Program-made: the position numbers and the translations under genes
Part shown: piece after piece, positions 409 through 14,673 of the stretch
How positions within the stretch are numbered: the first letter of the stretch is position 1
Layout of the letters: the number at the start of each line of letters is the position of its first letter
Source: Gemmatimonadota bacterium
GTDB lineage: Bacteria; Gemmatimonadota; Gemmatimonadetes; Gemmatimonadales; GWC2-71-9
Length of the DNA: 14,673 nucleotides
Direction: 5' to 3'
NCBI GenBank assembly: GCA_036679645.1
Contig: JAZDCY010000050.1
Coordinates: 1 to 14,673 of the forward strand
The notes under the pieces: model-generated
What the model saw: the letters and a program-made list of their open reading frames with translations, nothing else
Told to the model about the DNA's origin: nothing
Databases searched by the model: none

Positions 409-754
409 CGAGGCTCCGGGTGCGTGGGAATGATGATATGCAGCCGCGGACGGGTGCTCGCAAGTGGTGATAGGCGTTGTGGTTATGCGACGGTGCAGGT
501 CGTGTCGGGATTTGGCGGTAATCGGTGGTGACGAAATGCGACGGGTGGTAGACGCCGAGACGCCCAGGCAGACGCGTAGGCGCCTATCCGCCCCACTACC
601 AACTACATCTCACCCGAGCGCGGAATCCCGCTCCCCTTCCGCGACGGATTGGTACCGGCATTGGGCACGTGGAGCCTTATCGTCAGCGTGCGGCACGGAG
701 AGAATTGCGAGGACCGCGTCGTTTTATGCCAGTGGCCGTCAACCGTATTGGGGT

Positions 755-838
755 GCCGGCGTGGCGAAACTGGTAGACGCAGATACTTCGCATGTATCTG
801 AGCGCAAGCTCGTGCCGGTTCGAATCCGGCCGCCGGTA
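755..838 (+). tRNA. Class II tRNA with tRNA-Leu body and Ala anticodon CGC (non-cognate); CCA not encoded
   Basis: Acceptor GCCGGCG(755-761)/CGCCGGT(831-837), A73=838; D-arm GCG-AAACTGGTAGA-CGC; anticodon arm GATAC-TTCGCAT-GTATC with CGC at 789-791; variable arm GAGC-GCAA-GCTC (800-811); T-arm GCCGG-TTCGAAT-CCGGC; followed by CCC. Confidence 0.92.
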
Positions 839-887
839 CCCGTCGCGCGATATCCGGAGCAATAGTTCTCAGAGAGCCAGATCGGTG

Positions 888-916
888 TTGACACTCCCGA
901 GGTCCATACCTAGGTT
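888..916 (+). promoter_or_regulatory. Sigma70-type promoter for the putative antisense sRNA 1
   Basis: TTGACA (888-893), 17-nt spacer, TAGGTT (911-916). Predicted +1 near A922/A923, where tRNA complementarity begins. Confidence 0.75.
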
Positions 917-922
917 GGCGGA

Positions 923-988
923 ACATGCGAAGTATCACGTAGCCGGTTTCGCTGTGCCAAGAGAGCCGGGTCTTCGGACCCGGCTTTC
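923..988 (+). ncRNA. Putative anti-tRNA small RNA 1, antisense to the 5' half of the tRNA at 755-838
   Basis: 923-936 ACATGCGAAGTATC is the exact reverse complement of 782-795. 942-958 pairs contiguously with 758-774 using five G:U pairs. It ends in a hairpin and has a paralog at 2881-2946. Confidence 0.75.
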
Positions 989-994
989 GACTTT
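961..994 (+). terminator. Stem-loop with C(UUCG)G tetraloop; likely 3' end of sRNA 1 and possibly terminator for the convergent ATPase gene
   Basis: GAGAGCCGGGTC-TTCG-GACCCGGCTTTC (12-bp stem, one G:U) then GACTTT; the U-tract is weak. Confidence 0.7.
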
Positions 995-1056
995 GCTCTA
1001 GACGCGTAGACGGATCGTTGGACAGAGGGGTAGTTGGACCACGAGGGTCGCCGTCA

Positions 1057-2613
1057 CTACCCACGCCGCCCGCGACGCTTCCCCCTAGCCGCATCACCCC
1101 ACCGAGCCAAGAACGTCGTGATGAACTCGTGCACCCGTGACCCTTCCACCGTGAGCGGCGCCAGTGCCATAGCGACGCTGAGCGCCAAGTGATAGCCCTC
1201 GGACCGCGACGCGACCGCCCGCTGATACGCCGGATGCGCATCGTTGACCCACACAGTCGATTCCACAAGCCGGCCCAGCTCGGGATCGTCAGGCCGGCTC
1301 TCGAACCGAATACTGAGCCCGTAGCGTGCCGGACGCCGCCGCCCTGTGCCAGGAAGCCCGGTACTCTTGGGCTCGACCGGCGCGCGGGACGCGGTCTCCG
1401 ACGCGGTTTCGGGCGCCGCTCGCTCCACCTCCGGCTCCGCGGTCTCCGCGCCTTTGGGCTCAACGGGGACCGGGGCCGCGTCTTCCGGAGCCGGAACGGC
1501 ACCCGGGCCGCCCCCGCCCAACGGCAACCGGCGCTGGCCGCCGGGCCGCCGCTCGACCAGTGCCGCGAGCAGGGGAAACTCGTCGGCCAGATCGGCTAAC
1601 AGGTTTCTGAGATCCCGCTCGATCGGACGCGTACGGCGCTGCCGCTTCCCGGCTGCCGCCTCCCGCACATCCCCCCACTCCGCGAGCTGCGCCGCCACCA
1701 CCTCCTGTAACGCTTTCCGGTAGACGAGGTACAACGCGCCGCGCTTGCCCGTCCGTATGAAATCCGCCTTGTTGAGCATGAGACTCTCCGCCAACGCCGG
1801 CACTTCGATCAGGCCGCCTATGTGTTCCGGCGCCGCCGGCGTCACGCCCAGCCAGTCCCAACCGCGCTTGATCACCTTGCCGAGCGTGCTGACCGCCACA
1901 CCGCGCTGTTCCTCGCTCAGTGGAACGCCGCTCCGCACCAGATAGCCGGACGCGGAAGGCTTCCGCTTGCGGGGCAGCTTCACCGCTACCGCGACCCGCT
2001 CCCGCACCGACGGGCGCCGACCGAGGAAGTGTCCGTTCACCGCGAAACGCACCCCATCCGGGTACGCCGTCTGGAGGATCGCGTCGAACGCGGGATCGAA
2101 CAGCGGTTCGTACTGCCGCCGCAGCGTGGCTTCGACAAACCCGTCGTCCAACAGCGGACTCAAGGCGTTGTTGAGCGCGAGGCATACCCCGGTTCCGTGC
2201 TGCACGACCCGACCAGGCGGGTCCACCCATTTCCAGGGCGCGCGATGCTTCGATTTCAGATGCCACCGCGTGGCGACGTGGGTTTTCCCGCGTCGCGTCT
2301 CGGTAACGACGTCGTCACACAGCAGCAACCCGAGTTTTATTCCCACTCCCGCGAACCCGATCCCGCTACCCCGCTGCTTCGACGTGGTGGCGAGATCGTG
2401 ATAGCGCCCCAGCTCACGTCGCGTCATTCCCCGGCCGTCATCTACCACGGTGAGCGTCGCGGCCGCGGGATCGGCAGAGAGGACGACCGCCGTCGCCCCC
2501 GAGTCCAACGAGTTGGCTACGATCTCCGTGAGAATCACTTCCTCGAGGGAGCCGGGATAGGCATCCCGCAAGTCCTCGAGCAGGTGCAACAGATCAACCC
2601 GCGTCTCACCCAC
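1057..2613 (-). CDS. GHKL (HATPase_c/Hsp90/MutL/MORC-like) ATP-binding protein, about 518 aa
   Basis: Bergerat-fold motifs EIVANSLDSGA, VVDDGRGM, GIGFAGVGIK and HGTGV. Probable start is GTG at 2613 (MGETRVDLLHLLEDL...) preceded by GGAGG; the ORF track extends to 2643. Pro/Ala/Glu-rich linker before the C-terminal domain; tandem TAG TGA stops. Confidence 0.85.
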   Translation of the reverse strand: MGETRVDLLHLLEDLRDAYPGSLEEVILTEIVANSLDSGATAVVLSADPAAATLTVVDDGRGMTRRELGRYHDLATTSKQRGSGIGFAGVGIKLGLLLCDDVVTETRRGKTHVATRWHLKSKHRAPWKWVDPPGRVVQHGTGVCLALNNALSPLLDDGFVEATLRRQYEPLFDPAFDAILQTAYPDGVRFAVNGHFLGRRPSVRERVAVAVKLPRKRKPSASGYLVRSGVPLSEEQRGVAVSTLGKVIKRGWDWLGVTPAAPEHIGGLIEVPALAESLMLNKADFIRTGKRGALYLVYRKALQEVVAAQLAEWGDVREAAAGKRQRRTRPIERDLRNLLADLADEFPLLAALVERRPGGQRRLPLGGGGPGAVPAPEDAAPVPVEPKGAETAEPEVERAAPETASETASRAPVEPKSTGLPGTGRRRPARYGLSIRFESRPDDPELGRLVESTVWVNDAHPAYQRAVASRSEGYHLALSVAMALAPLTVEGSRVHEFITTFLARWGDAARGKRRGRRG

Positions 2614-2710
2614 AGCGCCTCCGGCCACGCAAGCCCGCATCATCCCGTGAGAGGAGTAACATCACGTCTCTCGTGGTCTCTGTAAACGATATGGTGAACT
2701 ACGTCATCCC

Positions 2711-2753
2711 GGAATGGCGGGAAGGGCGGAAGGGCGGAAGGGCGGAAGGGCGG
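2711..2753 (+). repeat. Octamer tandem repeat (GGAAGGGC)x4 plus one degenerate copy
   Basis: Perfect copies at 2720-2751; GGAATGGC at 2711-2718. Confidence 0.9.
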
Positions 2754-2781
2754 TTCCAATGTAGGTACACTCCCCCAACCT

Positions 2782-2811
2782 GTGCAGGTTCGAATCCTGT
2801 CGTCGGCACCC
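2782..2811 (+). pseudogene. 3' remnant of a second class II-type tRNA (T-arm, 3' acceptor strand, A73, CCC)
   Basis: GT-GCAGG-TTCGAAT-CCTGT-CGTCGGC-A-CCC; 25/30 identical to 812-841 with a compensated T-stem change. No matching 5' half (GCCGRCG, D-arm, anticodon arm) in the upstream intergenic region. Confidence 0.8.
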
Positions 2812-2845
2812 ACCGCGCTACCCAGACCGTCGCGTTGATATGATG

Positions 2846-2874
2846 TTACCAAGCACCGAGCTGGAGCGTATCCT
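2846..2874 (+). promoter_or_regulatory. Sigma70-type promoter for the putative sRNA 2
   Basis: TTACCA (2846-2851), 17 nt, TATCCT (2869-2874), then 6 nt to A2881. The geometry is identical to the copy-1 promoter. Confidence 0.6.
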
Positions 2875-2880
2875 CTACGT

Positions 2881-2950
2881 ACTTGCCGGGTCTCCCCGTA
2901 GCCAGTTCCGCTCCGCAGGAAAGCCGGGTCTTATGACCCGGCTTTCCTGC
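2881..2950 (+). ncRNA. Putative anti-tRNA small RNA 2 (paralog of 923-988), displaying codon GCC
   Basis: ACTTGCCGGGTCTCCCCGTAGCCAGTTCCGCTCCGCAGGAAAGCCGGGTCTTATGACCCGGCTTTC; about 51 of 67 columns match sRNA 1 in a hand alignment. CCAGTTCCGC is antisense to a Leu-type D-arm (GCGGAACTGG). Confidence 0.7.
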
Positions 2951-2955
2951 TCTTT
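2915..2955 (+). terminator. 16-bp perfect hairpin; 3' end of sRNA 2 and probable terminator of the convergent LVIVD gene
   Basis: GCAGGAAAGCCGGGTC-TTAT-GACCCGGCTTTCCTGC followed by TCTTT; the LVIVD stop is at 3017. Confidence 0.8.
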
Positions 2956-3016
2956 ACCCACAGATACCGGTCTGCACCGAACCGGACCCCTGCCGGCACC
3001 GAGATCACATAGCTCG

Positions 3017-6058: not shown

Positions 6059-9000
6059 CTACCGCCTGATCCCCGCCGCCACCCCCTCCGGCCCCTGGCG
6101 TAACCAGTGCGGCGGGACGAACGGCCGTTCCCGCGGCCACACCTCGTTGAGCGTCTCGCCCTCGTACAGCCGTCCACCCTTCATCACATACAAGATGCGC
6201 ACCGAATTCCGCAGATCCTCCAACGGATCGGCATCGAACACGAGGATGTCCGCCAGCTTGCCCTCCTCGATAGTGCCGAGGTCGGTCCCCAACCCAATGG
6301 CCTCCGCTCCATAGATCGTGGCGGCACGTAACACGTTGTGCGGTGACAGACCGCCCGACCCCAGGGCCCACAACTCCCAGTGGTAGCCCAGGCCCTGCAA
6401 CTGCCCGTGACTCCCCACGCCAATGCGCGCGCTGTCTTCCAACATCGCCCTCACGAACTCGGCGTGTCGCTGGAACACGTACTCCTCCGGCAGGAACCAG
6501 CCACCGCGGCCCGGATTGCCACCGCGGCGCCGGCTACGCGCATCGATGCTCTCTTCGGGTGCAAAGCGACGCAGCTTGGGATCGTCGTGCACGTTCTCGG
6601 TGGTGTAGAAGAAGTTCTCGCCGAACGGCCCGCCGTACGACACGAGCAGTGTCGGCGTGTTGGTGGTCTGGGAAGCCTTGAACAACTCGACCACGTCGTT
6701 GAATATCGGCGTTATCGGCAAGGCGTGCTCGATGCCGGGATAGCCGTCAAGCGCGTGCGTGATATTGAGCCTGAAGTCGAGCCCGCCTTCTGTCGTGGGC
6801 ATCAACTTCAATTCCTTCGCGGCCTGGATGATCCACTGCCGCTGCTGCCGGTTCCCCGACATGTACATCTTGAGCGTGTGCGTGTTGTAGTACTGGCTGT
6901 AACGGCGTAACACGGTCTTTGCGTGCTTGGCGTTGCGAATGTTCTCGGTCAGGAACACGCCCGGTCCCGTCGAGTAGATGCGCGGACCTATCATCCCCCC
7001 AATGTCGATACGATCCTGATAGCTCAATACATCTGTGGATCCGGTCTGTGGATCTCGCGTGGTCGTGACACCGAACGCCAACGTCGTGAGATACTGCCAC
7101 GCCTGCTCGCTGTGGATCTCCGGCACGAGCCACTGCGGGTGGTAGTGCGTGTCCACGAATCCCGGCGTGATGGTCTTGCCGGTGACGTCGATGATCTGGG
7201 CACCCTCGGGGACGTCGACCACTCCCGTGGTACCTACGCCCACGATGCGGTTGTCGGTAATGACGATGTCGGCGTTCTCGATAATCGAGTCTCCCTGCAT
7301 TGTGACCACGCGACCGCCGCGCAACACGATGCTGCCCCGCACGACCTCGCGTGGCAGCTCGACGTCGATCCGCATCTCCGCCGGCTTGTAGCCGGCGGTG
7401 TCCGCCGCCAGGCTGTCCATCCCGGACCGTACCGAATCTGCACGCGCACGAATGACCGCTGCCCGCGCCCGCAACTCGTCGGCAGCACGAATCAACGAGT
7501 CCGCCCGCATCTGCACCGAGTCCGCGGCCAACTGGCTGATACGTTGCGTCAACGAATCGGGGACCACCGCGGAGTCCGCCTTCTCGAGGCTATCCGCCAG
7601 CCCACGCGCGGTCTTGAGGCTGTCGAGCAGGTGCCGGGCCCGCAGCGCCTGTCCGACCGTCTCTCGGGCCGCCTGTTGGGTGCTGTCCTCGATTGCCTCG
7701 ACCCGCGAGAGATCATAGGTGAACAGGGCGTTCCCAATGGACCACCGGATCTGCGTTCCGTCGGCACTCCACGACGGGAACTCGCCGCCCACCTCGGTCA
7801 GTTGCCGCACCAGAACCGGCGCCGCACTCGGTCTGGCCACCGACACGGTGGGAACCGGTACCGTCACTGCCGGCATGTCGATCATGTAGATGTGATTGCC
7901 GACCTGTGCCAACGCCCTCCCACCGGTGGGAGACATCATGACCAATCCCGCCGGCGGTGGGCGCGGGCCCTGTTCGGCCGCTTCCGGGTCCATCACCGAC
8001 GGCTGCAACACCGGTTGGGGGAACACGCGACCCGGGACTACTTCCCACTGCTCCGGATGCGGGTTGCCAAAACCACCCGGTGGTCTGGCACCGCGCACGT
8101 TGAGATGGCGCTTTACATCCGTCCCGTCCCACCTGAACGAGACGAGACCCTCCGACCGGCTGTACGCGTAGATCCGGTTTGGCTGATCTACCCGGAAATG
8201 CGCCACGTCCCGACTGCCGGTGGGCGCGATCAACGTCACGTCGCCACCGCTCGCCGGTACCCAGACGAACTCACCACCCAACGGCCCAAAGAAGACGTCG
8301 GGGGCACTCGTCAGTTGGCGGGCGGCTCCCCGGCTGGCAACGATACGCTGTCCGTCCGGCGACCAGGCGAGGTCGTAGTAGAGCGCCGCCGCACTGGTGA
8401 GTTGCCGCGGGCTGGTCCCGTTGGCGCGCACGCTCATGATGTTCCCGCCCGCCGAGTCATCCCACGTTACGTACGCAAGCGTCGATCCGTCGGGTGACCA
8501 CACGGGGAAGTACTCGCCGATATCCGCGGTCGTGAGACGCCGCGGCTCGCCGCCATCGAGTTGCTGCACCCACAGACGGTCGAAAGCGGTGAACGCGATC
8601 TGCTCGCCGTTGGGTGACGCGACCGGATGCCGGATCTGCCGCGCGGTCACCGTCGCGGATGTATCCACGCGATACTCGAACTTCACTTCCGGCCCGATGG
8701 CGAGTTTGACCTCGGCCTCGAACGGGATGTTCGCAGCGGTGCCTCCGTCGATGGGCACGCGCCAGATCTGGCCGTCGTACGACACGACCACCGAACGTGA
8801 GTCGGGCATGAAGCTGTAGCCCGGCAGCACGTCGAGCGGGGCGCGCGATTCCATGTCGTCCCGTTGCACTGGATACGCCAACCACCGCTCGGCTCCGGTG
8901 TTCAGGTCGCGGATTCGCAGACCCGTCTCCGTGCCGTCACGCGTGCCGAACACCAGCCACCGGCCGTCCGGCGAGATGGCGGGCCGGAACCCCGACCCAT

Positions 9001-9721
9001 AGCGACCGGTCATGCGCGTGGACGTGCCGGTCTCTCGGTCGTACCGATAGAGCTGATACTGCGGGAAGATGGCGTTGTACTGCCAGTCACCGCTCCGCCG
9101 CGCATACCAGATGTGCTGCCCGTCGGGGCTGACCGCCGCACCCATCGTCTTGGCCGACGCCGGGCCGCTGATCACGATCTCCGCGCTCGACCGATGGACG
9201 TTGTAGATCCTGAGCTTGGCCGATCCGCCCAAGCCCCCGGTCCGACTCACCACGATGTGCTCACCGTCCGGCATCCATTCCGGCGAGTAGTACAGACTGG
9301 TGTTACCGCGTGTGACCTGCGTCGTGTCCGTGAAGTCCATACGCAGAGTCCACACGTTGTCGCCGCCGCTCCGGTCGGATACAAAGACGATCGTCTCGCC
9401 GTCGGGACTGAAACGTGGCTGCCCGTCATAGGCGAGGCCTTCGGTGATACGAGTCGCCGTCCCGCCCGCAATTGGTAGCGTGTAGAGATCACCCAACATG
9501 TCAAACACGATGGTCTGACCGTCGGGACTCACGTCCAATGACATCCACGTGCCGCGGGTCGCCGTGAAGTCGGCCGACCGCGCCGCCTCTAACGGCAACG
9601 GCTTTTTCTTGTCGCCACTACCCGGACCTGGCGGGCCCTGCGCGGACAGCGTCGTTACGGCCGCGCCCAACAGTGCGAGACCGGCAACGCTCGAGCGCAG
9701 CGCAATGTGCAGGCGAGTCAT
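6059..9721 (-). CDS. Secreted amidohydrolase family protein with N-terminal PD40/TolB-like beta-propellers (paralog B, about 1220 aa)
   Basis: Start ATG 9721 (MTRLHIALRSS..., GGAGG RBS, signal peptide) overlaps the upstream TGA (ATGA). GTWMSLDVSPDG and P.FSPDG repeats; TITPGFVDTHYH, GVTTTRDP, GPRIYSTG, GIEH, GTIEEGKLADILV. The ORF-track extension to 10165 is spurious. Confidence 0.93.
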   Translation of the reverse strand: MTRLHIALRSSVAGLALLGAAVTTLSAQGPPGPGSGDKKKPLPLEAARSADFTATRGTWMSLDVSPDGQTIVFDMLGDLYTLPIAGGTATRITEGLAYDGQPRFSPDGETIVFVSDRSGGDNVWTLRMDFTDTTQVTRGNTSLYYSPEWMPDGEHIVVSRTGGLGGSAKLRIYNVHRSSAEIVISGPASAKTMGAAVSPDGQHIWYARRSGDWQYNAIFPQYQLYRYDRETGTSTRMTGRYGSGFRPAISPDGRWLVFGTRDGTETGLRIRDLNTGAERWLAYPVQRDDMESRAPLDVLPGYSFMPDSRSVVVSYDGQIWRVPIDGGTAANIPFEAEVKLAIGPEVKFEYRVDTSATVTARQIRHPVASPNGEQIAFTAFDRLWVQQLDGGEPRRLTTADIGEYFPVWSPDGSTLAYVTWDDSAGGNIMSVRANGTSPRQLTSAAALYYDLAWSPDGQRIVASRGAARQLTSAPDVFFGPLGGEFVWVPASGGDVTLIAPTGSRDVAHFRVDQPNRIYAYSRSEGLVSFRWDGTDVKRHLNVRGARPPGGFGNPHPEQWEVVPGRVFPQPVLQPSVMDPEAAEQGPRPPPAGLVMMSPTGGRALAQVGNHIYMIDMPAVTVPVPTVSVARPSAAPVLVRQLTEVGGEFPSWSADGTQIRWSIGNALFTYDLSRVEAIEDSTQQAARETVGQALRARHLLDSLKTARGLADSLEKADSAVVPDSLTQRISQLAADSVQMRADSLIRAADELRARAAVIRARADSVRSGMDSLAADTAGYKPAEMRIDVELPREVVRGSIVLRGGRVVTMQGDSIIENADIVITDNRIVGVGTTGVVDVPEGAQIIDVTGKTITPGFVDTHYHPQWLVPEIHSEQAWQYLTTLAFGVTTTRDPQTGSTDVLSYQDRIDIGGMIGPRIYSTGPGVFLTENIRNAKHAKTVLRRYSQYYNTHTLKMYMSGNRQQRQWIIQAAKELKLMPTTEGGLDFRLNITHALDGYPGIEHALPITPIFNDVVELFKASQTTNTPTLLVSYGGPFGENFFYTTENVHDDPKLRRFAPEESIDARSRRRGGNPGRGGWFLPEEYVFQRHAEFVRAMLEDSARIGVGSHGQLQGLGYHWELWALGSGGLSPHNVLRAATIYGAEAIGLGTDLGTIEEGKLADILVFDADPLEDLRNSVRILYVMKGGRLYEGETLNEVWPRERPFVPPHWLRQGPEGVAAGIRR

Positions 9722-12700
9722 CGTGCACCTCCCCGAATTCCCGCTTCGACAACGGGAGCGACATGACGCCACGGCTCGTCCGGAGCTGCCTGCGCACGCG
9801 GCCAGATCTCGTCTAACGTATCTCCCTCGTACAGCCGTCCGTTCTTCATCACGTACCTTATGGTGTTGGTGTTGCGGATATCGTCCAACGGATTGGCATC
9901 GAGCACGATCAGATCGGCGAGCTTGCCCGACTCGATGGAACCCAGATCGTTGCCCAGCCCAATCGCCTGCGCGCCGAGTATCGTGGCCACACGGAGCGCG
10001 TCGTGATTTTCCATGCCGCCGCTCTGAATGGCCCACAACTCCCAGTGGTACCCGAGCCCCTGGAACTGTCCGTGACTGCCGACGCCGGCGCGCCCGCCGG
10101 CCTCGACGAGTCGCGCTATCCATGCCGCGTGCCTGCGGAAGGCATACTCGTCTTCGTGAAACCATCCGCCCGGACCGGGACCCGGATTTCGCCTTCGCAC
10201 CTTGGCATCGAACTCTTCACTCGGCATGAAATGGCGGATCTTCGCGTCGTTCACGATGTCTTCGTGCGTGTAGAAGTAGTTCTCCGCCCATGGCGCGCCG
10301 TACGACACGAGCAGCGTGGGCGAGTTCGTCGTTCCCGATGTCTTGAACAGCTCGATCACGTCCTCGTACGCCGGGATGATCGGCATCGTGTGCTCGACGC
10401 CGGGATACCCGTCCATCGCATGCGTCATGTTGAGACGATAGTCGAGCCCGCCTTCCGTGGTCGGCATCAACTCGAGTTCGCGCGCGGCCATGATCAACCA
10501 TTGTCGCCGTCGGCGATTGCCGGACATGTACATCTTGAACGTCTTGGTGTCGTAGTAGTCGCTGTAGCGACGCAGCACCCTACGCGCGTGGTCGAGATCC
10601 TCAATGCCCTCCGTCCAGAAGACGCCGGGACCGGTCGAGTAGACGCGGGGACCCGGCATGTATCCCGCCTCCACGCGGTCCGCGTACGACAACACGTCGG
10701 TCGTCGCCGTCTGCGGATCGCGGGTGGTGGTCACACCGTACGCCAAATTGGCGAGGTAGATCCACGGTCGCGTCCAGTGAAGGCCCCAGAGATTCCACAT
10801 GTGCGCGTGCGTATCGACAAAGCCCGGAACGATCGTCTTGCCGGTCACGTCGATCACCTGGGCATCGGCCGGCGCCGAACCGCGTGGGCCGACACTCGCT
10901 ATGCGATTGTTGGTAACCACGACGTCTGCGTTCTCGATCACCTCGGCACCGCGCATCGTCACGACCCGCGCGCCGCGCAGCACGACCGTGCCCTGCGGAA
11001 TATCGCGATTTGCCGTCACCTCAATGCGTCGTTCTTCCGGCCGGTATGTCGTGTCACCGGCAGCGGCGTCGAGTCGATAGGTCACGAACGCGTTCCCAAT
11101 AGACCAGTGCAGCGTGCGTCCGTCCCCGCCCCAGGCGGCGAACTCGCCGCCGATGTCGGTGAGCTTGCGGACCGGCATCGACGCGCTGTCCGGTTTCGTC
11201 ACCATCACCACCGGCACGCCGCCGATCTGCGGCACGGTAACGACGTATACGTCGTTGTTGACCTGCGCCAGCGCGAGGTCGCCTTGCGGCGCCATCATCA
11301 CCAAATCCGCAGGGCGGTGCGGGATGTTCGGCTCGCGACTGTAGTCGCGCGGCATGAGCAGGTCGGAAGTGGGCGACACCTCCCACGCTGCCGGCGTGAT
11401 CGGCAGCCGCCACGTGACCTTCAGGTGTTGTTTGAGATCGGTATTGTCCCACCGGGTCGAGACCAGCGCCACTGGTGGCGGCTGTCCCGGCTGGCGCGGC
11501 CCGCTGGACGGGAGGCGTCCGTAGGAGTAGATGCGGTCGGGGTCGTTCGTGAAGTGAGGGCGAGAGCGGCCGGCCGTCGGGCCGATCACCGTGACGGCGC
11601 CGCCACGTGCGGGAACCCAAACAAACTCCGAGCCTAATCCACTAAAGACGAACGGATCGACGGCCTCCTGCAGGTCCCGTGAGGACGCCCGTATCGCCAC
11701 GATGCGGCCGCCGTCGGGCGACCAGGCGAGCTGCTGGTAGTACGCCGACACCCGGGTGAGCTGTCGCACCCGGCCGCCCGATGCCGAAACCCGCATGATA
11801 TGACCGATCGAATCGTTCCACGTCACGAAGGCAACGTCCTCGCCATCTGGCGACCAGGTCGGGTAATACTCGCCGGTGTTCTGCCCGGTGAGCCGGCTCG
11901 GTGTCCCGTCGGGCAGGTTCATAACGTACAACCGATCGAGCGCGGTGAACGCGACCTGCGAGCCGTCGGGTGACGGCACCGCATCGCGAATCTGCTTCAC
12001 GGTGAAGGTGGCACCGTCGTCCACCGGATAGTCGAACCTCACTTCCGGTCCCACCGCAACTTCGGCGTTGACCGTGAAAGGGATTTTGGTTGGGTCGGTG
12101 CCGTCTATCGGCACATTCCAGATCTCACCGCCATAAGAGATGACGATGGACCGGGAATCTGGCGTGAACGAGTAGCCCGGCAACACGTCCATGTTGGCAA
12201 TGGATTCCTGGTCGTCCCGCTGAATGGGGAACGCGAGCCAGCGCTCCTCGCCCGTCGCGAGTTCGCGAATACGCAAACCCGTTTCGGCGTCATGGCGTGA
12301 GCCGTAGGCCAGCCATGTGCCATCAGGCGAGAGCGCCGGCCGGAACGCCGAACCGTAACGTGAACTCATCGTCGTCCGGGTGGCCGCCTCGCGGTCGTAC
12401 ACCGCGAGTTGATACTGCGGCATGACGGCGTTGTACTGCCACGCACCAGACCGCTGCGCAAACCAGACGTAACGTCCGTCGGCCCCAAAGGCCGGGCCGA
12501 GCATGCGAAGACGACCCGGACCGCCCGCCATCTCGAGGCCGCGGCCGCCGTCAACGTGGTAGAGCCACAGCTTCTCGAGACCGAGCCGCGTGCGTTTTGG
12601 CACTACGACGTAGTTGCCATCAGGCGTCCATTCGGGAGAGAGGTACGAAGCGCCATCGCCGGTGGTAAGCGGCGCCGGATTCCCTCCATCGGCATCGATC

Positions 12701-13053
12701 AGCCACACGTTGTCGTCGCCGCTCCGGTCGGAGACGAACGCGATGCGCGTGCCGTCACGACTGAAGCGTGGTCCCAGGTCGTGGGCAATGCCGTGCGTCA
12801 ATCGCGTGGCCGTGCCACCAGCGATCGGGATCGTGTACAGATCACCGAGCAGGTCGAACACGATGGTCTGCCCATCGGGACTCACGTCCAGGGAAATCCA
12901 CGTCCCTCGAGTCGCAGTGAACCGCGCCCAACGGGCCGGCTCGAGAGGCAGGCCCTGATCGGCTTCCTCCTGGCTCCAGGCAACCTGTGGGAGGGAAATG
13001 GCAAACAGAGGAAGTGCGGCGAGCAACAGACCGCAGCGTCGAGACAACTGCAT
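9718..13053 (-). CDS. Secreted amidohydrolase family protein with N-terminal PD40/TolB-like beta-propellers (paralog A, about 1111 aa)
   Basis: Start ATG 13053 (MQLSRRCGLLLAALPLFA..., GGAG RBS, signal peptide). GTWISLDVSPDG repeats; TIVPGFVDTHAH, GVTTTRDP, GVEH, GSIESGKLADLIVLDANPL. The ORF-track extension to 13941 is antisense to the ABC gene. Confidence 0.93.
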   Translation of the reverse strand: MQLSRRCGLLLAALPLFAISLPQVAWSQEEADQGLPLEPARWARFTATRGTWISLDVSPDGQTIVFDLLGDLYTIPIAGGTATRLTHGIAHDLGPRFSRDGTRIAFVSDRSGDDNVWLIDADGGNPAPLTTGDGASYLSPEWTPDGNYVVVPKRTRLGLEKLWLYHVDGGRGLEMAGGPGRLRMLGPAFGADGRYVWFAQRSGAWQYNAVMPQYQLAVYDREAATRTTMSSRYGSAFRPALSPDGTWLAYGSRHDAETGLRIRELATGEERWLAFPIQRDDQESIANMDVLPGYSFTPDSRSIVISYGGEIWNVPIDGTDPTKIPFTVNAEVAVGPEVRFDYPVDDGATFTVKQIRDAVPSPDGSQVAFTALDRLYVMNLPDGTPSRLTGQNTGEYYPTWSPDGEDVAFVTWNDSIGHIMRVSASGGRVRQLTRVSAYYQQLAWSPDGGRIVAIRASSRDLQEAVDPFVFSGLGSEFVWVPARGGAVTVIGPTAGRSRPHFTNDPDRIYSYGRLPSSGPRQPGQPPPVALVSTRWDNTDLKQHLKVTWRLPITPAAWEVSPTSDLLMPRDYSREPNIPHRPADLVMMAPQGDLALAQVNNDVYVVTVPQIGGVPVVMVTKPDSASMPVRKLTDIGGEFAAWGGDGRTLHWSIGNAFVTYRLDAAAGDTTYRPEERRIEVTANRDIPQGTVVLRGARVVTMRGAEVIENADVVVTNNRIASVGPRGSAPADAQVIDVTGKTIVPGFVDTHAHMWNLWGLHWTRPWIYLANLAYGVTTTRDPQTATTDVLSYADRVEAGYMPGPRVYSTGPGVFWTEGIEDLDHARRVLRRYSDYYDTKTFKMYMSGNRRRRQWLIMAARELELMPTTEGGLDYRLNMTHAMDGYPGVEHTMPIIPAYEDVIELFKTSGTTNSPTLLVSYGAPWAENYFYTHEDIVNDAKIRHFMPSEEFDAKVRRRNPGPGPGGWFHEDEYAFRRHAAWIARLVEAGGRAGVGSHGQFQGLGYHWELWAIQSGGMENHDALRVATILGAQAIGLGNDLGSIESGKLADLIVLDANPLDDIRNTNTIRYVMKNGRLYEGDTLDEIWPRAQAAPDEPWRHVAPVVEAGIRGGAR

Positions 13054-13332
13054 GGCAAAACTCCGCAGCGTGTGGGTACCGGATTGGGCTTTCGAATTGA
13101 AACGTGGGCCTACGGGTGGCGACAACCGACAGTCAGGATCGTGCATTGTGAACGCGCGAGGCCAATATGTGGATGGTGCCGTCAGCATGGGCAGAAAGAT
13201 GCATTGGGGGGCGGATGGTCGCGAGGTGCCGTCTTGGATTCCCCGAAGACACCGGAAAGTTCCTCCAGATCCGCATCTGGGACTCAGGAGTCTGAGAACC
13301 GAGTGTCCCTGCCAATCCCGGCTACCGACAAC

Positions 13333-13375
13333 TGAACGCCTGAGCGCCTGAGCGCCTGAGCGTCTGAGCGTCTGA
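13333..13375 (+). repeat. Octamer tandem repeat (TGAGCGYC) x5 in the divergent intergenic region
   Basis: tgaacgcc tgagcgcc tgagcgcc tgagcgtc tgagcgtc tga. Confidence 0.85.
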
Positions 13376-13420
13376 CAGGGTACGCGAGTAACCTGGCAAC
13401 CGTTTATCTTCCCTCCTCCA

Positions 13421-14673
13421 GTGCCTTCAACCGATCCCGGCTTGTCCACGAAACCAAAGATCTCGGGCGCGAGTCTGCGGCACGCGTTCTGGGAGATCAT
13501 CTGGCCGCGACGCACGCTCATCGCGATCGGGCTCCTTCTGATCCTCATCAACCGGCTCAGCGGCCTCGTGCTGCCCGCATCGAGCCGGTACCTCGTCGAC
13601 AACGTCGTGGCCGGCGGCGACGGGGGGATGCTGTTCAAGCTGCTGGGCCTCGTGGCCGTTGCGGTGACGATCCAGGCGATCACGTCGTTCGCGCTCACCA
13701 TGATGCTGAGCGTCGAGGCGCAGCATCTCATCGCCAACCTGCGCGCGCAGGTACAGAAACACGTCCTGCAGCTCCCCATCCGGGTCTTCGACAACCGCAA
13801 GACCGGTGAGCTGGTATCGCGCATCATGGATGACGTCGAAGGCGTGCGGAACCTCGTCGGCACGGGCCTGGTGCAGCTCGTGGGCGGCACGGTCACCGCT
13901 GTAGTGGCGCTGGTCTTTCTCATCCGCATCGATCCGCTCATGACGTTGCTCGCACTCGGGCCGCTCGCGGCATTCGCGTTCGTCTCGACCCGGGCGTTTC
14001 AGACACTCCGACCCGCGTTTCGCGAGCGCGGAGCTATCCGCGCGGAAGTCACCGGCCGGCTCACCGAGACGATCGGCGGCATCCGCGTGATCAAGGGGTT
14101 CCACGCGGTCGAGAGGGAGTCCCAGGTGTTCGAGGCAGGGGTGATGCGCATCCTGGACAACGTGCGCACCACGCTCAAGGCATCAAGCTGGGTCACGAGC
14201 CTCGGAACGTTTTTCCTGGGGCTCGCGAGCGTGCTGATTCTGGGTCAGGGCGGCCGGCTCATCCTGCGGGGCACCCTGACGGTGGGCGAGTTGTTCTCGT
14301 TCATTCTCTTTCTCGGTTTCTTGATTGCGCCGGTGCTTCAGATGGCGAACATCGGGACACAGATGACCGAAGCGTTCGCGGGCCTCGACCGTACGGCGGA
14401 GCTACTTTCGTGGCCCAAAGAGGACGATGACCCGAAACGCACCAAAATCATGCCGCAAATCCGCGGCGACGTCTGTTTCGAGGACGTGCACTTCCGCTAC
14501 GAGGAGGACAAGCCGGTGCTGCAGGGCATTTCGTTCGACGCGCCTGCCGGCACCGTGCTCGCACTGGTTGGGAGTTCGGGTTCAGGCAAGACGACGCTCG
14601 CGAGCCTTGCCGCAACCTTTCTGCAACCCGACTCGGGCCGCGTACTCGTGGATGGTATCGATCTGAGTGAGGT
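13421..14673 (+). CDS. ABC transporter fused permease/ATP-binding protein (MsbA/MdlB-like exporter); runs off the right edge
   Basis: Absent from the ORF track. Open frame from GTG 13421 (or TTG 13442): ...AFWEIIWPRRTLIAIGLLLILINRLSGLVLP...FDNRKTGELVSRIMDDVEGVRNLVGTG...; Walker A ALVGSSGSGKTT at 14561-14596. Confidence 0.93.
   Translation, partial: MPSTDPGLSTKPKISGASLRHAFWEIIWPRRTLIAIGLLLILINRLSGLVLPASSRYLVDNVVAGGDGGMLFKLLGLVAVAVTIQAITSFALTMMLSVEAQHLIANLRAQVQKHVLQLPIRVFDNRKTGELVSRIMDDVEGVRNLVGTGLVQLVGGTVTAVVALVFLIRIDPLMTLLALGPLAAFAFVSTRAFQTLRPAFRERGAIRAEVTGRLTETIGGIRVIKGFHAVERESQVFEAGVMRILDNVRTTLKASSWVTSLGTFFLGLASVLILGQGGRLILRGTLTVGELFSFILFLGFLIAPVLQMANIGTQMTEAFAGLDRTAELLSWPKEDDDPKRTKIMPQIRGDVCFEDVHFRYEEDKPVLQGISFDAPAGTVLALVGSSGSGKTTLASLAATFLQPDSGRVLVDGIDLSE

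Follow-up and report, generated by a model that had tools for sequence, protein, structure and literature searches.

Several described systems share features with the locus analyzed here. In the type VIII toxin-antitoxin (TA) pair SdsR/RyeA, both partners are RNA, and SdsR is an mRNA-targeting small RNA encoded opposite RyeA (PMC8610362). In CreTA, a rare tRNA is the target sequestered by the RNA toxin CreT, whose promoter is repressed via Cascade by CreA, a CRISPR-repeat-like antitoxin encoded beside cas genes (PMC12737573). The type I system hok/sok has a folded, end-paired precursor, a short antisense RNA that is driven by its own promoter and carries a 3' hairpin, and RNase III scavenging (PMC1635323). 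Allo-tRNAs, in which identity and anticodon are mismatched, have an 8/4 or 9/3 fold and mostly Ser identity (PMC5389517). The Streptomyces tRNA-ProX genes are natural mistranslators with switched anticodons, combining Pro identity with a dedicated synthetase paralogue, ProRSx (PMC10404621).

The window (the whole stretch of DNA analyzed, 14,673 nt, from genome G000) contains a tRNA with a Leu body and the anticodon CGC (Table 1). ARAGORN called it as tRNA-Ala(CGC) at 754-841, Rfam family RF00005 matched 755-838 with 49.9 bits, and the anticodon occupies positions 789-791. The acceptor/T-stem layout is 7/5, in contrast to the 8/4 or 9/3 of allo-tRNAs. Direct reading identified the Leu-type elements A73, A15:U48, G18G19, and A20a, together with a 4-bp variable arm. 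The pair G3:U70, which is the AlaRS determinant, is absent, so the tRNA lacks this element of tRNA-Ala identity. The nearest host tRNAs outside its own family are tRNA-Leu(GAG) and tRNA-Leu(CAG), each at 52 of 67 positions. ARAGORN, Rfam, and the identity elements thus agree with the original prediction, made from the letters of the sequence, of an intact tRNA with a Leu body and an Ala anticodon. Leu identity in E. coli is set by A73, A15-U48, G18G19, A20a, and the D/T-loop hinge, with the anticodon unused (PMC9976931); the four nucleotide elements are all present in the window tRNA, and the rules bear out the premise that LeuRS ignores the anticodon. Because the enzyme reads A73 and the D/T-loop hinge rather than the anticodon, we infer that the host LeuRS would leucylate this tRNA, by E. 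coli rules.

Table 1. Features of the module, the second unit, and the intervening gene in the window
Feature	Position	Strand	Basis or remark
-10-like hexamer TATCGT, predicted precursor promoter, no clear -35	678..683	+	direct reading and family pattern
Conserved 5' leader, ~65 nt, start predicted	690..754	+	5' end paired with 3' trailer; body loosely complementary to the 5' half of the tRNA, as a second antisense
tRNA, Leu body with anticodon CGC	755..838	+	ARAGORN, Rfam; CCA not encoded
3' trailer pairing with leader 5' end	839..848	+	covarying leader/trailer pairs
Sigma70-like promoter of antisense RNA, TTGACA-17-TAGGTT	888..916	+	direct reading and family pattern
Antisense segment against tRNA 758-795; codon GCG (927-929) opposite anticodon	923..958	+	predicted pairing
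cUUCGg hairpin with weak U-tail, predicted terminator common to both transcripts	961..994	+	folding; hairpin also 3' of antisense in other modules displayed
Passenger gene for a GHKL (MutL/MORC-like) ATPase, lying between both units	1057..2643	-	Pfam HATPase_c_3, E 3e-12
3' remnant of second tRNA (T arm, acceptor strand, trailer)	2782..2818	+	repeat analysis; 5' half replaced by genome-wide GGCGGAAG repeat
Promoter-like TTACCA-17-TATCCT of orphan antisense RNA	2846..2874	+	direct reading
Orphan antisense RNA, codon GCC (2885-2887), plus hairpin	2881..2955	+	best in-genome match is the GGC tRNA on contig C59

A predicted antisense RNA lies downstream of the tRNA, in tandem and without overlap. 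The two hexamers of its promoter (888-893 and 911-916) match the consensus at 9 of 12 positions; the module promoter sites and the hairpin terminator were not called by a promoter/terminator scan of the window. The hairpin itself spans 961-988, and the whole RNA (923-994) has a folding z of -3.4. An Rfam scan of the module matched only the tRNA, which leaves the small RNA without a family. The duplex of 923-958 with 758-795 has a predicted energy of -50.9 kcal/mol, compared to a mean of -19.3 ± 4.1 kcal/mol for random genome windows, of which none in 20,000 was as low. It includes a perfect 14-mer over the anticodon arm, present in the genome as two copies (tRNA and antisense), and a 17-bp D-arm helix with five non-Watson-Crick positions, all of them G:U. 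The elements first described from the letters of this region all hold at their coordinates, including the near-consensus promoter, the 36-nt segment complementary to the tRNA, the codon GCG facing the anticodon CGC, and the UUCG hairpin, although its U-tail is weak. With no terminator between tRNA and antisense, the full transcript is predicted to fold the antisense onto the tRNA in cis. In a control with host tRNAs, pairing of the antisense was -18.6 with tRNA-Ala(CGC) and -51.9 with its own tRNA, and a role in regulating host tRNAs was rejected on this basis. One contig from run X1 equals window 737-2629 with zero differences; the match is not independent evidence, since X1 is possibly the sample from which the window came. 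A T-box-like element was rejected on anatomy, given the 36-nt full antisense and the unpaired CCA end.

Four further Leu-body tRNAs with anticodons GGC or GAC were identified in G000 (50 ARAGORN tRNA calls), on contigs C7, C11, C32, and C59. Downstream of each lie a promoter-like site, an antisense segment, and a hairpin of its own, and for all five family tRNAs in this genome the own antisense is the best partner. A separate Leu-body tRNA near tRNA-Leu(CAA) (C7:130360-130443, minus strand) has an irregular anticodon loop, no ARAGORN assignment, and no module-type antisense. The host keeps full normal Leu, Ala, and Val tRNA sets, including tRNA-Ala(CGC). GCG had been assumed to be very common in host genes, and it is the commonest codon (5.0%), with GCC, GAC, GGC, and GTG also within the top seven. 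The retained tRNA-Ala(CGC) argues against reassignment of GCG to Leu, which is contradicted by one window gene aligned to 13 relatives, where GCG corresponds to Ala at 285 and to Leu at only 4 of 410 positions. Chance is excluded by the family statistics below, and no support was found for reassignment or artefact; we consider the probability of either GCG reassignment or a chance or assembly artefact to be practically negligible.

Relatives were searched with a pattern of the Leu D-arm and a pyrimidine at position 36, in which the D-loop bases are fixed by the pattern; locus L403 (G406) was excluded from every analysis. The pattern matched 15 of 401 genomes from the phylum, with 27 matches and none in the reverse control. 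All 27 have Ala, Val, or Gly anticodons, and 25 have a downstream antisense. The remaining two are a decayed copy and a copy cut by a contig end. The copy in L023/L087 is truncated by a contig end, and the identical tRNA in L312 carries an antisense. In the unselected metagenome set, 68 intact tRNAs had 130 nt or more of downstream sequence, and 60 of them have their own antisense, compared to 3.8% of 4,556 swapped pairs (9.5% with the same anticodon, 1.6% with different anticodons) and to 1 of 26 cognate tRNA-Leu controls, the latter at a non-module position. The original prediction had proposed looking in related genomes for mismatched tRNAs with a downstream reverse complement, and both searches found them.

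In the genome_contigs scan, counts rest on 120 of about 610 stretches. Among the matches listed, 45 of 49 intact tRNAs have C36 (GNN codons), and 18 of 49 have a tandem antisense at a strict threshold, down from 19 after a match 716 nt away at L044 was taken as chance and removed. A tandem antisense was present in 22 of the 24 Gemmatimonadota-named records among the matches listed, counting broken tRNAs and two below-threshold cases; one record is truncated. These records suggest that G000 probably belongs to Gemmatimonadota as well. Non-Leu anticodons with a purine at position 36 are rare (5 of 251 genomes). Among these loci, Leu-body tRNAs with Arg(GCG) have an antisense (L419, L420, and L421, the last over the variable arm), and two with Pro(TGG) (L418, L422) have none nearby, with a hairpin upstream and a short basic ORF downstream.

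Two other layouts were found. A tandem antisense centered on the variable arm and the 3' anticodon strand occurs in two Planctomycetota records (L075, L078) and on three viral contigs (L180/L454, L200/L456 twice, and L465). In three Saccharibacteria records (L028, L120, L141) the antisense is convergent and non-overlapping, behind a shared terminator; this layout precludes action in cis and so favors action in trans. The viral contig L200/L456 contains two tandem Leu-body Gly tRNAs (GCC, ACC), each with its own antisense and terminator, and viral contig L489 has two pattern matches with the same spacing. A local antisense at z ≤ -4 was present in only 8 of 33 hand-picked loci with intact Leu-body GNN tRNAs outside this family and in only 4 of 15 intact viral Leu-body tRNAs; 1 of 16 cognate controls also passed (z -5.5). 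Many alpha-/gammaproteobacterial, actinobacterial, and Dehalococcoidia Leu-body tRNAs have no local antisense. Among them, eight alpha-/gammaproteobacterial loci (L037, L044, L048, L055, L064, L069, L107, L108) have Ala or Asp anticodons in tRNAs that are mostly 95-100 nt long with long variable arms, some in tandem. Nine viral tRNAs (L152, L161, L167, L201, L215, L225, L231, L235, L263) combine a Leu-like D arm and long variable arm with a GTT (Asn) anticodon and G73; they may be tRNA-Asn of class II shape and not miscoding tRNAs. No full module match was found in 72,556 plasmid records.

Pairing between antisense and anticodon arm was compared across 74 nonredundant modules, which were picked for having an antisense run. 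In all 74, the antisense codon matches the anticodon with perfect Watson-Crick complementarity, a count that is partly by construction because of this selection. Nine anticodons are represented (CGC 30, CAC 18, GGC 11, GAC 6, GTC 5, and four singletons). The own duplex is the best in 65 of the 74 (mean -36.6 vs. -17.6). A tree of 72 rows from which the anticodon arm was left out requires about 33 anticodon changes, where 8 would be the minimum (its bootstrap had not fully converged), and well-supported sister pairs with different anticodons include L270/L301, L063/L335, the two L001 copies, and L013/L334. Entropy is 1.68 bits in the anticodon stem and 0.5-0.8 in the other stems, yet 96% of the anticodon-stem pairs are intact. 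In 47 of 74 modules, but in 2.2% of shuffles, a promoter pattern lies 10-14 nt upstream of the codon. The tRNA body is constant whatever the anticodon (Ala, Val, Asp, Glu, or Gly), with A73 in 74 of 74, U48 in 72 of 74, and G3:U70 in none. Covariation of antisense and anticodon had been put forward as a check on the original prediction, and the antisense codon does follow the anticodon while the Leu body holds.

These modules also bear on whether the tRNA might be active without inserting Leu, as an extra cognate tRNA, an anticodon-nuclease decoy, or a LeuRS/EF-Tu sink under antisense control. Val anticodons occur in 24 of 74 modules, with the ValRS determinants A35, C36, and A73, so these members could be partly valylated. 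C33 is found in 18 of 74 and, like odd T-loops, may weaken decoding, and some irregular tRNAs are charged yet unused in translation (PMC5389517). Against such roles, G73 or U73 matching the Ala, Asp, or Gly anticodons is absent from all 74 modules, as is G3:U70, and the host has full cognate tRNA sets. The anticodons also favor abundant codons, and A37 is present in 73 of 74, so that loop geometry is kept. A tRNA that is not a Leu mis-inserter is therefore quite improbable.

A conserved leader of ~65-70 nt precedes the tRNAs; covarying pairs join its 5' end to the bases that immediately follow A73. Leader/trailer pairing energies are -11.5 for own, -9.6 for swapped, and -9.0 for shuffled combinations, and there is loose pairing between the leader body and the 5' half of the tRNA (own -39.7, swapped -36.8, shuffled -30.6). 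A -10-like YAnnnT lies 3-9 nt upstream of the leader in 47 of 63 modules, compared to 17% in shuffles. In precursor folding, loss of the cloverleaf was no greater than with shuffled leaders; because this test did not separate real from shuffled leaders, silencing of the precursor is only suggested. The leader/trailer fold, the four further G000 copies, and the orphan status of the second unit described below were missed in the original prediction.

Leader-bearing copies comprise 56 intact tRNAs with antisense, 5 broken tRNAs with antisense, and no intact tRNA without it, an asymmetry that is partly circular because the leader profile was derived from modules. L295 is a counter-example, with an intact leader-bearing tRNA and no antisense in the 120 nt present. 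In L299 and L314 the antisense is absent and the tRNA stems are imperfect. Several family tRNAs carry T-loop hairpin insertions of ~45-95 nt (L057, L077, L121, L325, L371; also L328, L368). Five of these copies continue into the 3' half of the tRNA beyond the insertion and keep the antisense; two have lost it. Several insertions start with what we take to be attC-like sequence, and they could be integron secondary-site insertions or the work of a T-loop-targeting element.

The promoter-RNA-hairpin arrangement had been reported to recur at 2846-2955. It is real, but as an orphan with only a tRNA 3' remnant upstream of it. A (GGCGGAAG)n-type repeat at 2716-2753, found at many intergenic sites in G000, displaces the 5' half of this second tRNA. 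The orphan antisense pairs with the C59 tRNA at -51.0, compared to -54.8 for the antisense of C59 itself. The ATPase between the two units is a stand-alone protein of 528 aa, encoded by a single-copy gene in G000, with weak similarity to BbrUII/MutL/sacsin N-termini. It falls below every NCBIfam cut-off, and no relatives were found beside the other modules fetched. In G070, from the same genus, the genes flanking this islet adjoin at ~345 bp, and both module and ATPase are absent, which indicates that window ~465-3016 is accessory DNA. Further along, window 6059-13941 (minus strand) contains two tandem paralogous ORFs of ~1,100-1,400 aa, 73-82% alike over long DNA stretches (repeats D1-D3); they resemble beta-propeller plus amidohydrolase proteins.

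Modules occupy many unrelated insertion sites without conserved neighbors, and a tRNA 3' duplication borders the window islet. Both observations would suit a protein-less mobile element or DNA inverted repeat whose antisense arm guides targeting or helps folding and is no inhibitor. That arm, however, has its own promoter and hairpin, lies on the opposite strand in the convergent records, and does not match host tRNAs in the control above. In-register mismatches are more often G:U (62) than A-C (19), which also counts against a mobile element, although the module score somewhat favors G:U. A guide role would further leave the non-cognate anticodons unexplained, and we regard this explanation as very improbable. 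No consistent integrase or transposase was found near modules. Protein TA families occur within 1.2-1.5 kb of 6 of 35 module loci (7 with one ambiguous) and of 1 of 29 controls (p 0.09 or 0.05), a marginal enrichment.

The same biochemistry might instead benefit the host, with the antisense as a regulator of limited Leu mistranslation under stress, or with dormancy or abortive infection following phage shut-off of host transcription. E. coli became more tolerant of carbenicillin when tRNA-ProA/ProN caused mistranslation (PMC10404621). The copies are chromosomal and at unrelated sites, and some have defence-like neighbors (PDC-S01, REase_II, and PDC-S03 at two G000 loci). Since the family is patchy across the 401 genomes and multi-copy, switches specificity fast, and is repeatedly inactivated, selfish addiction fits better than a conserved host function, and a host-beneficial role appears unlikely.

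The antisense tracks the anticodon arm of its tRNA over dozens of loci, so the locus is probably an RNA-only toxin-antitoxin module, with a mistranslating Leu-body tRNA as the toxin and the antisense RNA as the antitoxin. Evidence from sequence and comparison consists of the Leu body, the non-Leu anticodon, the 36-nt complementarity, the tracking of the anticodon arm, the promoter positions, the leader/trailer pairing, and the accessory multi-copy spread. Together these point to a real and apparently undescribed tRNA/antisense family under strong selection for RNA-RNA pairing, from which we infer its function. The toxin-antitoxin reading is the best supported by the comparative data among those originally offered; addiction, abortive infection, and a regulated switch are not separated by these data.

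In the proposed mechanism, a weak promoter would produce a long precursor (about 690-994), which its leader and, in cis, its antisense segment would keep folded. A stable tRNA would be freed slowly by RNase P, 3' trimming, and CCA addition, and the stronger internal promoter would supply an excess of ~70-nt antisense RNA. This RNA may enter at the anticodon loop and unzip the anticodon and D arms, and the duplex would likely pass to RNase III. If the locus were lost or transcription stopped, the antisense would decay first, Leu would enter GCG codons, and the proteome would be poisoned. The hypervariable anticodon stem may encode specificity, so that several copies could coexist with no cross-neutralization. 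In yeast, a tRNA-Leu(CGC) variant reduced growth to 54% (PMC11028032), and natural missense tRNAs are toxic or growth-arresting in E. coli (PMC5389517, PMC10404621).

On balance, the evidence leans toward an undescribed TA class of a miscoding-tRNA toxin with a dedicated anti-tRNA, protein-free and ~300 bp for the whole unit, which would retarget abundant codons by paired anticodon/codon changes. It would have at least three layouts and occur in Gemmatimonadota, Planctomycetota, Saccharibacteria, and viral contigs. The original prediction knew of no described tRNA/anti-tRNA pair; likewise, searches of open-access PMC and bioRxiv listed no tRNA paired with its own antisense RNA. The word "antisense" does not occur in the main texts of PMC5389517, PMC7609411, PMC11415595, and PMC10404621. 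If the interpretation is true, this would be, within the literature covered, the first tRNA gene in nature under the control of a co-evolving antisense RNA of its own, and its toxin would be the first of any TA system to kill through a rewritten genetic code. The module would provide a testable reason for the persistence of identity-mismatched tRNAs in bacterial genomes, and ambiguous decoding carried silently would be a route bearing on the start of codon reassignments. Annotators such as ARAGORN label these genes as ordinary tRNA-Ala or tRNA-Val, and the family is thus hidden in current annotation.

Compared with the described systems, the module resembles tRNA-ProX in its natural mistranslation, switched anticodons, and patchiness, and in the toxicity of tRNA-ProX in E. 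coli (PMC10404621), but no synthetase family occurs among 117 neighbor ORFs of modules. It shares the identity/anticodon mismatch of allo-tRNAs, which are toxic in E. coli and often near TA genes (PMC5389517), but has a 7/5 fold and a Leu body. An RNA toxin on translation and addiction logic are common to CreTA (PMC12737573); here, the pairing would be directly RNA-RNA, the target is a tRNA body, and no Cas Pfam was found in the same 117 ORFs. The putative end-paired folded precursor, the separate promoter for a short antisense with a 3' hairpin, and the predicted RNase III scavenging recall hok/sok (PMC1635323), but the toxin protein is absent, and a hidden peptide toxin was rejected because no SD-led ORF is shared (best position 7/67). 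As in SdsR/RyeA, both partners are RNA and the antitoxin would bind antisense (PMC8610362), with predicted pairing and covariation indicating an antitoxin RNA able to pair with the toxin RNA. Unlike that pair, which overlaps on opposite strands, the module has a tRNA as its toxin candidate and, as its antisense, a separate, non-overlapping, imperfect copy that co-varies with the anticodon arm. Judged from its sequence, the module lacks the defining features of SdsR/RyeA, CreTA, type I systems, allo-tRNAs, and tRNA-ProX, and would work like a type VIII TA pair with a hok/sok-like architecture.
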